From positions 122,760,001 to 122,824,000 of the forward strand of contig NC_042999.1 in assembly GCF_006345805.1 (NCBI RefSeq): 64,000 nt of DNA, in the 5' to 3' direction. Made by a program: the position numbers and the translations under genes. The notes under the pieces are model-generated. The model worked only from the letters and a program-made list of their open reading frames with translations. It made no database searches and was not told the origin of the DNA. This DNA comes from Octopus sinensis. Its lineage: Eukaryota. Below, one piece after another: positions 305 to 43,424 of the stretch. Numbering within the stretch: position 1 is the stretch's first letter; the number at the start of each line of letters is the position of its first letter.

Positions 305-917
305 AATAAGTGGAAAATTATGTAGTAAATGCACAAATGAAAAACATATAATGAATGCGCAGACGAATAGAAGTAAACATATATTCAATGCACAAATGGA
401 CAGAAAACAAAAACAGTTATCAACCACATGGTAGCAACCAGATGGTATTACTCAGTTATCAACCAGATGGTTTTACTCAGTTTTGCAGCATTAATGAAAA
501 GACTGAGATGCTTCCCATGCTTGTGGTGCCCATTAAAGTTGCAGAGAATATTGGACTGCGAACAAACAATATATGGAATACAAGCGATACCAAAGTAGAC
601 ATATGAAAGGAAATAAATGTAATTTAAGATGATGGACACAGCTTTCACCAGCACCACCAACATGGGAAGCACCTCAGTCTTTTCATTAATGGTGCAAGAC
701 TGAGTAATACCATATGGTTGATAACTGATGAAAAATTAGGGATCTTCTATTTTTCTTTTCCATCCATTTGTGCACTCAGTATATGTTTTTCCTTTCGTCT
801 ATGCATTCATTATACATTGTTTCATTTGTGCATTTACTATACATTTTTTCACTTATTAAGTAACAGAACTCAACACACTCTGGTTTTTATTAACAGTAAG
901 TTATTGGTCGTGATTTA
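305..917. mobile_element. Foldback (inverted-repeat) element, probably Penelope-like derived
   Basis: Arm 305-530 is the diverged reverse complement of about 650-857 (e.g. ttttgcagcattaatgaaaagactgagatgcttcccatg vs catgggaagcacctcagtcttttcattaatggtgcaaga). It abuts (TA)n and the right side runs about 60 nt past the arm. CTGATGA occurs at about 725 but there is no complete ribozyme. Confidence 0.6.
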
Positions 918-1099
918 GCATATAGGAGTGGCTGTGTGGTAAGTAGCTTGCTTATGAACCACATGGTTCGCGGTTCCGTCCTACTGCATAGCACTTTGGG
1001 CAAGTGTCTTCTACTATAGCCTCAGGCCAACCAAAGCCTTGTGAGTGGATTTGGTAGACGAAAACTTAAAGAAGCCCCTCGTATATATATATATATATA

Positions 1100-1432
1100 T
1101 ATAATATAATTTGAGACAAAACCACTATTTTAAAACCAAACAAGGAAAGACTTACTCAATACATAAAATTTTAATATAAATTAAATAAACCGCCACTACA
1201 AATGTTTCATGTCTGTTCCGACAATCTTCAGGTGGATTTTCGATCTTCTAATCAGTATCAAAATTTATTTAATTTATATTAAAATTTTATGTATTGATTA
1301 AGTCTTTCCTTGTTTGGTTTTAAAATAGTGGTTTTGTCTCGAATTATATTATATAATATTTTACTATAAAATTGGATTTAACCCTAAATCTGATTTTTCC
1401 CTGTAATTTTGGATTCATTCCCTAATATTTAT
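1100..1432. mobile_element. Foldback Penelope-like element with central hammerhead
   Basis: Near-perfect ~90-bp inverted arms at 1100-1189 and 1264-1353, an ~80-nt one-sided extension, (TA)n on both flanks, and a spacer containing a hammerhead motif. Confidence 0.8.
1193..1235 (-). ncRNA. Minimal type I hammerhead ribozyme motif
   Basis: Minus strand reads CCAC-CTGAAGA-T-TGTC-ggaaca-GACA-T-GAAA-C-attt-GTA-GTGG: stem I CCAC/GTGG, intact core, 4-bp stem II, short stem III, GUA cleavage triplet. Confidence 0.72.
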
Positions 1433-1810
1433 TATTATATATATATATATATATATATATATATATATATATATATATATGTATGTGTGTGTGTATATGT
1501 TCGTGTTTCTGTGTTTATCCTCCCAACATCACTAGACAATGTATATATATATATACAAATCTTTATTTTACTGTCAATTTGTAATAAAAACAATTAAATA
1601 TTAAATGAAGAGTAACTCAATAATTTGGGGCTAGAGTCATCACTGGATTGTGACGGTTAGTGTGCTGAAACTTCAAAGTAACAGTGATCCCCATATTTTA
1701 AAAGTATAACATATATACATACATATATATATATATATATATATATATATATATATATATATATATGTATATGTGTGTGTGTGTATAGCAAGGGAGAGAC
1801 AGAGAGTAGT

Positions 1811-2167
1811 TATTGGTTATGGGCGGTCAGAAAGTTACCATTAGGTTCATGTCTATTTTCGCTCTTAGTAATATTCATGACTCATAGGCCTGTTGCCAGA
1901 GGCACATAACCTCTTTACTAATGGAGGTAAGAATAGTCTTGATCAGCAATGGTTATGAAAAAAAATCCCAGAAACAAAATTTTTCAAAGCAACAACCCCT
2001 TCTGGGTGAGATGGAATTATCTCCCTTTCACCAGTTCCTGTATTCTTACCTTCATTAGTAAAGAGGTTATGTGCCTCTGGCCAGCATGTCTATCGAGTCA
2101 CCTATGTTGCTAAAAGCAATAATAGATATGATGCCAATGGTAACTTTCTAACTGGCCAAAACCAATA
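1811..2167. mobile_element. Foldback element with decayed hammerhead-like relic
   Basis: Arms 1811-1935 and 2041-2167 are reverse complements (ccagaggcacataacctctttactaatg / cattagtaaagaggttatgtgcctctgg). Minus strand 2023-2065 reads CTCTTTA-CTAATGA-A-GGT-aagaat-ACA-GGAAC-TGGT-G-AAAGGG. Confidence 0.65.
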
Positions 2168-40483: not shown

Positions 40484-40559
40484 TCAGGTCACTGTCTGGA
40501 ATCGAACTTGGAATCTTGGGGTTAGTAGCCCATGCTCTTAACCACTACACCATATGCCC
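40484..40559 (-). promoter_or_regulatory. tRNA-derived Pol III internal promoter (A and B boxes) within the foldback element
   Basis: Minus strand GGGCATA-TGGTGTAGTGG-ttaagagcatgggCTACTAAcccc..aGTTCGATTCC..gtgacc: A box, anticodon-like arm, B box. Confidence 0.7.
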
Positions 40560-40703
40560 ACAGGCATTTGGTTAAGAGCATGGGCTACTAACCCCAAGAT
40601 TCCAAGTTCAATTCCAGACAGTGACCTGAATAATGATAATAATAATAATAACAGCATCAAAAAATACCTTAGCAATGAGAACCCAGGTTCAAAATTTCCC
40701 CAA

Positions 40704-40749
40704 GACATCTGATGAAGGCTGGAGGGTATATCAGCCAAAATGTTGTGTT
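40704..40749 (+). ncRNA. Decayed type I hammerhead (mirror copy at 40331-40376 on the minus strand)
   Basis: GACAT-CTGATGA-A-GGCTG-gagggtatat-CAGCC-AAAA-TGTT-GTGTT. Restoring two CpGs gives the canonical GAAAC-GTT core with palindromic stem III. Confidence 0.6.
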
Positions 40750-43424
40750 AACAACAAACAAGATGAGGACAAATATCCGTCAATTGTAAATAATGTAAAT
40801 AATTCCTCATCTCTTAAATATAGAACTGCCTTATGAAAAAAGAAAATGGTTTCAAGAAAAATCCCAGTTCTCCTACTTCTGTTGGAATTCTCAAAAGTTT
40901 CCAATTCTTCTCACTAAAGCAAAATGGAGTAAATTCTTCTTACAATACGAGTAGCAGCTGCAATAAGACACTAAGTTCTTTGACACTAATTCAAGAGGCT
41001 TGCAGATTTAACAAAATCTGTCTCCCCTCATCACCTAGCTATAACAACAAGCATAGAAGTGACCACTCTTCTTTATGACCTTGAAAACAAAGCAGCAGAT
41101 ATTTGTCATTATTTCAATATCTCAAAGACTCAACACTTTTGCTACAATCAGGAGGATTAATAAGAGCAATCACACAAAGCCCTCTAAAACCTGTATACTT
41201 AAGAAGTAACATCACATGCACAGAAAATGGAAAAATCCATCTTGTGAATGCATGAGTTGTTTTTGATGGTCCCACTGACATCTGAAACTCTTCTGTCTCT
41301 ACCTAATGATCTTCTGTATCACTGTGGTGTCAGAGCGATTGTACCTTTTCACTGCTTTGACACTCACCAAACACTAGGAGAGAAACATGCATTTCATTGG
41401 ACATTGCTTGAAAGTTAAGCAAAAGCTCATTAGCAGTGTACTTCTATGAATGCCTGGACATGGTCAGTCTTCCAGTAAACGTCTTCATTAACCAATTCTG
41501 TACAGACATGGGATATTGCTTGCTATCCTCTCAAATGTTATGCATAATTATAATGATGGCATGACAAAACTGCACAACTTCAACTAGATGTAGTTGATCC
41601 AGCAAACTGCACCTAGAGATTAATTTCCTTTGACATTTGAATCCATTGTAATTCACTAATATTACTAATGCACTATAAATATAGGGCCTTGTTGTGAGTA
41701 GAACGATATCAATACTGTCCATTTCTAATAGGCATGCACTTAAGAAATTCTTTTTATAACATCATTTTGTGTTTGAATCTGATGAATCCAGTAAAATGTT
41801 TCTTCTAAAACTGACCATAGTCATAAATAGAACTTATGGAACATAGTTGATTTGCTAATAAACTTTGTATATTTCAATCCCCTCTTCTGTTTTACCACAA
41901 TTTCATTATTATCTTCATTACTTCGTCTACCAGCTTCAGTTCTTCCAAGATTTAAATTGATTATATACAACAAAATATGTCTTAATTTCCTCAACACCAT
42001 ATATAGCATTCTAATTCATTAAATTTCACAAAGTTTTTAGCTTTATTCTCATTTTCTACACACTGCAATCAGAAGTTTATATTTCATAGGGAATCTACTG
42101 TCTTCGTTTTATATAATGTACATTTCTGCTTGAATTATGTTTTGGTAGGATAGTCTGCTTGGCTGGCTATTGTGGTTTAAGCCAGTAAATATGTAGACTG
42201 GAGACATGAAGCAAAAGTCTGATGAGAGAAATTGTGTGCTCCTTAAGAAATAATATAAATTCTAAATCTTAATAAATGGAGAAATAATAAAGCTGCAGAT
42301 GTTTCCTCTTAAATTCATTATCAAAGTAAAGGAAATGAAAACACTTCAACTAAAAAATCAAAAGATTGTGGCAGACTTAGCTTATCAAGAAAATAATATT
42401 CATTTTTCACATAGGCACAAGCCTTCACAATTACATTCAGCAAAACTATGACAGTGTTTGATGTTTCTACCTTTTTTGAAAAACATATTTGCATTATAAG
42501 TGATGTGAAATGGCTGCAACCAGGGTCTAACTCTTGATATATTCGACTCAGAGGAAGAATAAAAGCAAAAACTGAATTATAATAAATCACTTTTCCTCAA
42601 TACATCATTTTTGGCTTGAAGCAGCGGCTTGATACTGACAATGATAAAAACTTTGTGAAGGATATATTTATTTTCACATTAACCATTAAGAGTAGCATTA
42701 GTTGCAGCAAAAACATCAGTAGTTTTACATTGTTTTCCATTTACTTGAGACACAAACTAGAACTGTAGTCATAGCATCAGACACAGAATTTTCCACTCAT
42801 AAGTTCAGGTCCTGACAATAAGATTACAACAGTTTTGTCCCCCAAATTCTTCCATTTTGCTATGTCTTTTTTTTTTTGTCACATGTTATCATGTATATAA
42901 ATGGTCAGTAGGGGAAAAGATTGACATTGAATATGCAACATTTTAATTTTGCATAAATATAGACTAGTGTCAGCACACTTGTCTTGGATGGGATTTAGTA
43001 TGAAGCATAATCTCCTTTGATCAGTGCATCAAGTCATACACATCCAATCTACAGATAACTGTTCACTACAGTGACATTCCAAAGATTTACCCTCTTTTAC
43101 TCATTTTTCTATCTACTTAGAAGCAGGTGTACAAATTTTTTAATATTTTAGATAAGTCAACAATTATAAAGAATATATTTTATTGTCTTCATAAGAAGAA
43201 TGAATAATAAGAAAAATAAGCCAAATAAATTTTTTATAAGTTTTACAACCATTTATATAATAGCTAGGTTTCTCAATTAAATGTTTGCTAAATAGCAAAC
43301 TACTTGCAAAGAAGTCTTAAAACTGCTTCGAAGACAATGTCATTTTAATTTTGATATCTTTTAACAAGAGAAACATTAAAAATAGTCAACACTGTTTTAT
43401 TTAATTATATATTTATCCTCCTCC

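Follow-up and report, generated by a model that had tools for sequence, protein, structure and literature searches.

How do Penelope-like elements (PLEs) keep their introns and build head-to-head repeats? Evidence on this question comes from six short palindromes in a 64,000-nucleotide stretch of the Octopus sinensis genome (assembly GCF_006345805.1, contig NC_042999.1, positions 122,760,001 to 122,824,000 of the forward strand), here called the window, which is AT-rich and full of (TA)n. The six foldbacks, named E1 to E6 in window order, had been described from the letters alone as non-autonomous PLE or retrozyme-like elements built around minimal hammerhead ribozymes, and an inverted-repeat comparison recovered all six where they had been predicted. 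Searches of the 2.72-Gb assembly with each arm found a dispersed family for all six, every arm being a member of one (40 of 40 scored candidates matched per search, with 157 to 2543 first-look candidates).

Are these palindromes elements in their own right, or pieces of larger ones? At least four of the six are probably short copies of the hammerhead-bearing pseudo-long terminal repeat (pLTR) of coding PLEs, made by an internal start of reverse transcription near the 5' end of the element mRNA and by fold-back of the cDNA. Seen directly are the family links of E2, E3, E4 and E6 to open reading frames (ORFs) of reverse transcriptase (RT) and GIY-YIG type, the fixed 3' ends, and a tail on one arm only. 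The architecture itself is known, ordinary PLE debris. A textbook insertion consists of a pLTR, an inverted 5'-truncated copy and an optional 30-40-bp tail (PMC8557442; PMC3846280), and PLE architecture, ribozymes and pLTR-derived retrozymes have already been described (10.64898/2026.07.22.740005). The value of these stubs is mechanistic, not architectural: hundreds of young E2 insertions reveal their splice state, their start point and their two arms to direct reading, and they argue for a sense, spliced template and for one molecule per palindrome. In the literature searched, which lay outside subscription journals, Repbase and Dfam, no coding PLE was found described with a tRNA-type promoter, nor was any abundance of spliced pLTR insertions that end at the start site.

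The octopus insertions share with the canonical endonuclease-positive (EN+) PLE insertion the head-to-head arms, the tail on one side only, the microsatellite or AT-rich targets and the palindromic junctions. They differ in that tails run from 26 to 150 nt, each family has points at which its 5' ends accumulate in place of a purely random scatter, and most E2 stubs are spliced. An inverted 5'-truncated arm with an optional one-sided tail recurs across the six elements; a one-sided extension had been predicted for four and is present in E1, E2, E4 and E6, but E5 has one as well, and none was seen for E3. The E2 and E4 families are young, with many copies 97-100% identical, E6 is of intermediate age (90-96%), and E1, E3 and E5 are old (74-87%). 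PLE families, many of them recently active, have been reported from Octopus vulgaris in an account whose available part makes no mention of ribozymes (PMC13282606).

Coding relatives of the palindromes

In the E6 family, GIY-YIG-type coding sequence lies upstream of the arm: among 30 coding copies, a tRNA-like head follows directly after the GIY-type stop codon in 28, and the hammerhead arm in 23. Upstream frames match the RT domain RVT_1 (PF00078, E 1.4e-10), and 11 database homologs of the ORF carry PF26215, most of them also PF00078. Arm and tail continue into the ORF in 7 of 12 loci; the pLTR is found on both sides of the ORF and, in locus L401, in tandem. In the window, positions 40675-40827 (plus strand) hold the first 51 codons of the family's RT/GIY-YIG ORF with the hammerhead inside; a long ORF in L392 starts with this peptide, which weakly resembles the N-terminal part of P0005 (E 0.002). 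The earlier statement that the window contains no PLE RT or GIY-YIG ORF is thus accurate for the two domains, neither of which was found, but misses this ORF start.

The E4 and E2 families show the same arrangement. Five of 30 tail-selected E4 copies continue upstream for 1.5 kb or more, into coding sequence; in L306 and L388 the ORF comes after the pLTR, and ORF sequence lies on both sides of E4 copies. The E2 pLTR leads into an RT-like frame in L349 and L387 (395 amino acids in L349) and has a GIY-type frame ahead of it in L363, L366 and L375. At 47% identity to each other, the E2 and E4 RT-like frames carry a YRDD motif, have tblastn similarity to PLE RTs (E 5e-7 to 2e-4) and have 694 homologs, which share PF26215 and PF28514 with the homologs of E6; the only named homolog among the E4 ORF matches listed is from Argonauta hians. 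By their motifs the frames look Neptune-like. For E3 the coding link is on the downstream pLTR side only, where a stretch of 670 nt common to L190 and L192 leads from a decayed GIY-type frame up to the arm, and the RT part was not recovered. Motifs that we presume to be GIY-YIG-like were seen by eye at the ORF end in the E2, E3, E4 and E6 families. In an alignment of the GIY-type frames, 2 of 24 members match the GIY-YIG Pfam model weakly (E 0.001); a homolog search with the E4 GIY-type frame gave no match, and searches of solved structures gave no useful one. ORFs beside E1 arms (L162, L178) and E3 arms (L194, L204, L205) were judged unrelated or unassignable.

By this sequence comparison, then, E2, E3, E4 and E6 are identified as pLTR pieces of PLE families with putative RT and GIY-YIG-type coding copies, and the six palindromes are not a separate non-autonomous class. 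The original prediction was right in its PLE link, its inverted truncated pLTR, its tail and its minimal type I hammerheads. The non-autonomous status has to be given up for four of the six, since the same arm is joined elsewhere to RT/GIY-YIG-type coding sequence.

Two further observations concern the ORFs. Another PLE family, with a CxxC linker and a GIY-YIG end and with its pLTR not identified, is present in L162/L385, L204, L289 and L308. The E2 and E4 ORFs contain long asparagine-rich or low-complexity linker inserts (L387 minus 3580-3400; L141 minus 3329-2358), which recall the N-rich inserts of Adineta Penelope ORFs (PMC3846280).

Spliced stubs, paired arms and the origin of the palindrome

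The E2 palindrome of the window joins a long, tail-less arm on the minus strand (1104-1263), made up of a spliced pLTR 5' end, the hammerhead and the arm proper, to a short inverted arm on the plus strand (1264-1433; arm 1264-1352) that lies in (TA)n and ends in a tail of about 80 nt (1353-1433). The mirrored parts, 1104-1189 and 1264-1349, are 98% identical over 92 nt. Across the family, the hammerhead is preceded by one short sequence in 54 of 62 matches (close variants included) and by a pyrimidine-rich sequence ending in AG in 6, and a GT-AG intron of about 1.28 kb lies just upstream of it. Exact searches found the unspliced junction (the short sequence, then G) at 32 places in the genome and the spliced junction (the short sequence, then A) at 266, with controls at 0 for both; the window's own E2 is spliced, its junction lying between 1245 and 1244. 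Among 20 fetched unspliced loci, 19 have AAG followed by GTATGT at the donor and 16 have an AG acceptor within the locus, at 1243-1308 nt in 15. The 3' UTR and the 1.28-kb intron of E2 also hold internal duplications of the same TG-rich blocks (L363, L366, L375).

Where do the spliced stubs begin? In all 20 spliced arms compared, the match to the intron-bearing promoter reaches back no more than 13-31 nt from the junction (modes 18, 24 and 27), whereas unspliced donors (n=20) extend at least some 70 nt further upstream; the tail-selected E2 sample is blind to 5' extent. The spliced arms begin at TCACTT, which we take to be initiator-like, and the stubs likely stop at the transcription start. 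The excess of spliced junctions, the starts at 13-31 nt and the splice state shared by paired arms suggest that the stubs are likely run-off copies of the 5' end of the sense, spliced mRNA. This arrangement has a precedent in Drosophila virilis Penelope, whose pLTR holds a promoter and an intron and whose start site lies 46 nt before the 5' UTR intron in the pLTR promoter (Schostak et al. 2008, PMC2377424). Both elements have a start a few tens of bases before the donor inside the pLTR, both are spliced, and in both the long genomic copies keep the intron, although splicing is here read from DNA copies. The E2 intron is 1.28 kb against 75 bp in D. virilis, and E2 has hundreds of spliced genomic stubs where the part of that account consulted reports none.

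A scheme can be proposed for how such copies may arise. The element's own RT-endonuclease would nick AT-rich DNA, and reverse transcription would start at an internal site near the 5' end of the element mRNA; the RT would then run off or stall, and the new cDNA would likely fold back and be recopied into the mirror arm. In the system studied by Frangieh et al. (2024, PMC11167929), the tail results from the use of two internal RT start sites. The mRNA would carry the pLTR twice. Priming in the 5' pLTR would yield short, spliced, dead-end run-off copies, comparable to retroviral strong-stop DNA, whereas priming in the 3' pLTR would yield long copies that keep the intron, which would explain intron retention in full-length PLEs. 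The hammerhead would ride along and would not set the ends.

The pairing of arms bears on whether one molecule makes one palindrome. Ten E2 palindromes were compared and nine could be scored for each property: both arms had the same splice state in 9 of 9 (6 spliced/spliced, 3 unspliced/unspliced) and the same subfamily indel in 9 of 9 (alleles 49:25). In E4, the 5' extents of paired arms correlate (Spearman 0.97, n=21) and lie within 20 nt of each other in 14 of 21 pairs, against 2.7 on permutation. The window's E4 (arms 5932-6154, 94-97% identical) has a left arm on the minus strand (5784-6052) with the 3' half of the hammerhead (6022-5997) and a 150-nt tail (5935-5784), and a right arm on the plus strand in (TA)n (6053-6150) with the 3' half of the hammerhead (6064-6089) and no tail. 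Matched lengths and palindromic junctions of this kind suggest fold-back of nascent cDNA.

Does the ribozyme set the ends? Seven of 30 E4 tail arms share a preferred 5' end, at -156 to -173 relative to the cut site, and no tail arm starts within 5 nt of that site (0 of 30); a few of 18 unselected E6 arms start near theirs. These E4 ends are consistent with the in vitro result that hammerhead cleavage is not needed for PLE insertion (PMC11167929). The notion that arms start at the cut site had come from a junction-biased E2 sample and was dropped.

Several points weigh against the fold-back scheme and the PLE assignment on which it builds. The tail-less arm of E4 is the one that reaches further 5' in 10 of 21 pairs (the tailed arm in 7, equal in 4), and fold-back of a cDNA started at the tail cannot give longer tail-less arms without later trimming. 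The E2 transcription start is placed from DNA ends only, and a spliced, non-autonomous E2 master copy could have made some of the 266 spliced junctions. Pfam recognised neither the E2 and E4 RT frames nor any GIY-type frame directly, and no same-strand RT/GIY-YIG link was found for E1 and E5 in 25 and 30 loci with 1.5-kb flanks. The family samples are the 25-30 best-scoring copies and are not random.

The longer tail-less E4 arms make twin priming on one RNA a serious rival, possible if clearly the less probable account. Here a dimer of the PLE protein would nick both strands and prime at the tail end and at the arm end of one RNA, and the two cDNAs would be joined head to head. Either arm could then be the longer, and each palindrome would have exactly one tail, on either arm. 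Such a distribution is seen: 42 of 42 E2 head-to-head pairs have exactly one tail, E6 pairs have one in 7 of 9 and none in 2, and the tail sits on either arm of the palindrome. The anole PLE protein, a predicted dimer, cleaves and extends both strands in vitro (PMC11167929). Two independent RT runs, however, should not end, at arbitrary positions, as close together as paired arms do (within 20 nt, as at -560/-547, -280/-277 and +17/+18), and the perfect short palindromes at many junctions fit snap-back.

The view from which the analysis set out, that the palindromes are non-autonomous PLE derivatives or retrozymes with master copies of their own, cut by dimeric hammerheads and mobilised in trans, now looks unlikely. 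Short copies do far outnumber long ones and have preferred 5' ends, E1 and E5 remain without a partner found, and for E6 a SINE-like (short interspersed nuclear element) RNA polymerase III transcript of the pLTR alone is possible. Non-LTR retrozymes have moreover been described as pLTR derivatives, and the copies seen here resemble them in being short, non-coding-looking, related to pLTRs and equipped with a type I hammerhead (10.64898/2026.07.22.740005). The arms are nevertheless near-identical to the pLTRs of ORF-bearing copies, centres vary from copy to copy, which argues that the palindrome is not the replicating unit, and 5' ends avoid the cut site as described for E4; the ORF-bearing E6 copies L391 and L399 also start at the tRNA-like head. 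The tandem arrays of a short unit that define non-LTR retrozymes were not seen beyond occasional doublets, the copies being single or head-to-head.

Much less probable still is self-priming on an antisense template, in which the RT copies an antisense transcript, a model proposed as a joint explanation of head-to-head repeats and of the introns that PLEs keep (Arkhipova et al. 2013, PMC3846280). The head-to-head geometry and palindromic junctions are as in that model, and 32 intron-bearing E2 junctions exist. The 266 precise spliced junctions and the six palindromes with both arms spliced, on the other hand, require that one or more of their ancestors was copied from a sense, spliced RNA, so that for E2 the model is already contradicted unless every spliced copy goes back to a single spliced master that was transcribed antisense. 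Miniature inverted-repeat transposable elements (MITEs), DNA transposons with terminal inverted repeats and TA targets, would account for the inverted arms and for the (TA)n flanks of E2 and E4, but this reading has next to no probability, being refuted for E2, E3, E4 and E6 by the asymmetric tail, variable centres, single-arm copies, splicing and continuity with RT/GIY-YIG-type ORFs. The symmetric ends and fixed internal structure of transposon termini, which the original prediction had named as evidence against itself, did not appear: tails are one-sided, centres vary, and a PLE link exists in four families, with none found for E1 and E5. PLE stubs are easily mis-annotated as MITEs or SINEs.

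The tRNA-like head of E6

The E6 foldback (40275-40804, 80-90% identical) poses a separate question, that of its promoter. Its left arm, on the minus strand (40275-40566), carries a tRNA-like head with an A box (40552-40542) and a B box (40507-40499), then (AAT)n and a hammerhead (40376-40331), and has no tail; the right arm, on the plus strand (40569-40828), has a 5'-cut head, (AAT)n, a hammerhead (40704-40749) and a 26-nt tail (40803-40828). Both boxes, by a pattern that we take as the consensus, are matched in 21 of 40 heads, and the spacer between them measures 34 nt, compared with 32 nt in one of this genome's tRNA-Gly genes; the stems of the head are degenerate. Rfam found no tRNA in the head, and ARAGORN found none in 24 E6 loci or in L391/L217. 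In a sample selected by the 3' part, 28 of the 31 arms that reach the head have their start at -17 to +28 relative to its first base and 3 go beyond that range upstream, and among 18 arms met by chance none extends beyond -8. Since the coding copies L391 and L399 begin at the same head, the E6 transcript appears, from these ends, to begin there. The A and B boxes stand at the 5' end at tRNA spacing, as in a tRNA-derived SINE; the head is, however, not confined to a non-autonomous element, and the idea of a separate SINE riding a PLE was dropped because the head is part of coding copies.

Could such an element be read by RNA polymerase III? Polymerase III stops at runs of T. The sense strand of the E6 ORF contains no TTTT in L393 (2307 nt) or L400 (2238 nt), where synonymous shuffles predict 3.1-3.5 (P 0.018 and 0.014, one family counting as one test); L401 has two (P 0.13) and L398 one (P 0.05), and no TTTT run is common to more than 2 of 10-34 aligned E6 copies. 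The RT frames of E4 and E2, by comparison, hold nine TTTT runs each, as their own shuffles predict. This shortage of TTTT is a hint that the E6 family may be transcribed by polymerase III, with the tRNA-like head as a possible promoter. Against it stand the single modest P value, the uncapped state of such an RNA, a TATA-like motif about 30 nt upstream with which polymerase II could initiate at the same position, and the chance that a structured head simply stalls the RT. If the reading held, a full RT-endonuclease ORF would lie, unusually, on an uncapped transcript, and E6 would be a natural intermediate between PLE and SINE. The combined proposal, that E6 is a coding PLE with a captured tRNA-derived promoter, transcribed end to end by polymerase III with its 2.4-kb ORF purged of TTTT, and that the E2 stubs are strong-stop-like run-off products which map the start site and resolve intron retention, is tentative and would more probably fail in one part or the other.

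Schistosome Sm-alpha repeats are likewise tRNA-headed and carry a type I hammerhead; the tRNA-like head of E6 differs from theirs in belonging to an ORF-bearing element. In the anole Poseidon element PAc, ribozyme and ORF start overlap, and two internal RT start sites bound the tail (PMC11167929). E6 shares with it the hammerhead overlapping the ORF start, the AT-rich targets and two end sites, some 26 nt from each other, within the first codons; E6 has in addition a tRNA-like head and (AAT)n before the start codon, of which the part of that account consulted makes no mention.

Hammerhead motifs, foldback density and the older elements

Whole, half or decayed hammerheads had been predicted for five elements, and E2 to E6 indeed carry, as read from their sequences, putative motifs with the type I order of CUGANGA (or its U3-A8 variant), GAAA and UH with stems I-III; E1 has no type I motif. 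A strict scan of the window gives 1 match against a shuffle mean of 0.1 (n=20) and a relaxed scan 4 against a mean of 1.05 and a maximum of 3, and an Rfam scan of the window recognised no hammerhead. The excess in the window alone is modest, and the case is carried by family copies. E2 has an intact motif (1193-1235, minus strand, read 1235-1193) with a 4-bp stem I, CUGAAGA, an extra base, stem II, GAAAC, a short stem III and a GUA cut site, and 14 of 30 tail-selected family loci are intact. E4 has a whole motif with a very long stem II in 17 of 30 loci, and E6 an intact one in 4 of 30, most others differing by CpG-type changes; in the window's E6, both arms carry the motif with GAAAC decayed by such a change. 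E3 (1811-2167, 71% identical overall) has a decayed type I motif in both arms (2085-2146 plus, 1892-1832 minus), with the core in 12 of 24 family loci by a loose pattern. The E5 foldback (29365-29797, arms 72-81% identical; 29330-29797 in the feature list, with a tail on the left arm) has a hammerhead with U at position 3 and a palindromic stem III (29534-29487, minus strand) and a decayed copy at 29606-29649 (plus). A decayed C3 was considered for E5 and abandoned for a U3-A8 core variant, which 12 of 20 matched arms carry and C3 none; compensatory stem II variants occur among its copies.

These motifs resemble the minimal PLE hammerheads of Cervera and de la Peña (PMC4209133) in the short stem I, the extra base after A9, the short or palindromic stem III and the U3-A8 variant of E5. 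Further likenesses are an intron whose end closely precedes the ribozyme, as it does in D. virilis, and opposite-strand motif pairs 100-700 bp apart, which those authors had already noted. E1 does not fit, and the stem II of E4 is very long.

E1 consists of a tail-less left arm (305-529, minus) and a right arm (651-857, plus; 77% identical) with a one-sided tail at about 858-905, present in some family copies only and giving a right-hand feature of 651-905; the family counts at least 40 loci at 76-86%. CUGAUGA followed by a downstream GAAA was found in 0 of 25 family loci, so E1 is not a type I hammerhead. Its core pieces at 673-740 (plus) instead run in the order cleavage block, GAAA block, CUGAUGA block, a candidate SGC permutation in which GAAA is decayed here. 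The GAAA block lies 29 nt upstream of CUGAUGA, and a segment still further upstream could pair in register to form stems I and III of 6 bp each; the candidate stem II is weak, with a mismatch at the second pair and two G-U pairs. In this structure, derived from the same sequences, 94% of cells are paired against 20-46% for slid partners, with no excess over shuffles; covariation does not rise above shuffles, none of 25 loci is fully intact, and a single long hairpin likewise accounts for most of the pairing. E1 shares with the type-SGC hammerheads of Eckert et al. (2023, PMC10085705) the S-G-C block order, the 3-nt link between stem I and II strands and stems I and III of 6 bp whose register agrees with the core, but differs in its weak stem II, lack of covariation and lack of an intact copy, and the published motifs come from metatranscriptomes. 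That E1 would be the first genomic, animal SGC-permuted hammerhead is accordingly a doubtful proposition. An octopus Naiad entry is labelled 'HHR_half_core' (PMC8557442 supplement), and by that analogy E1 may be Naiad-related; four short motifs of the E1-E6 families were not in one supplementary file of that paper.

How common are such foldbacks? A masked self-comparison of the window gives 12 local foldback alignments. E1-E6 explain seven; of the other five, three are opposed pairs of a common repeat that we take to be SINE-like and two are small extras (39017-39069 and 59583-59686) in which no hammerhead was seen. Evenly spaced stretches totalling 760 kb hold 41 non-SINE foldbacks and the 200 kb beside the window 18, or one per 11-19 kb. 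The predicted one per 10 kb comes near this figure for foldbacks, but the wider claim that the genome's foldbacks form a hammerhead-built class was not shown: in these 960 kb of unselected DNA there are 59 non-SINE foldbacks and 18 strict hammerheads, 2 of the 59 contain an intact motif by a scan that misses decayed and cut motifs (control mean 0.4, maximum 3), and 7 are tied to the E1-E6 families or to a PLE ORF. Strict motifs at about one per 55 kb in unselected 10-kb stretches suggest that many more PLE families exist.

About ten more type I hammerheads, mutually unlike and with palindromic stem III, were met in L254, L265, L267, L272, L273, L276, L290, L292, L121 and L138. In the window, a strict-scan type I match with a long stem II lies outside any foldback at about 63781-63870 (plus) and may be chance or another PLE stub. 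PLE families are inserted beside or into one another at (TA)n in L088/L141, L170 and L390 (E2 by E4; E6 by E1). SINE-like repeats with tRNA-type heads stand in many copies at 925-1080, 2688-3490, 3681-4080 and 5209-5460; the commonest short repeat of the window resembles octopus SINEs, and several SINE-like copies sit as opposed pairs that mimic foldbacks.

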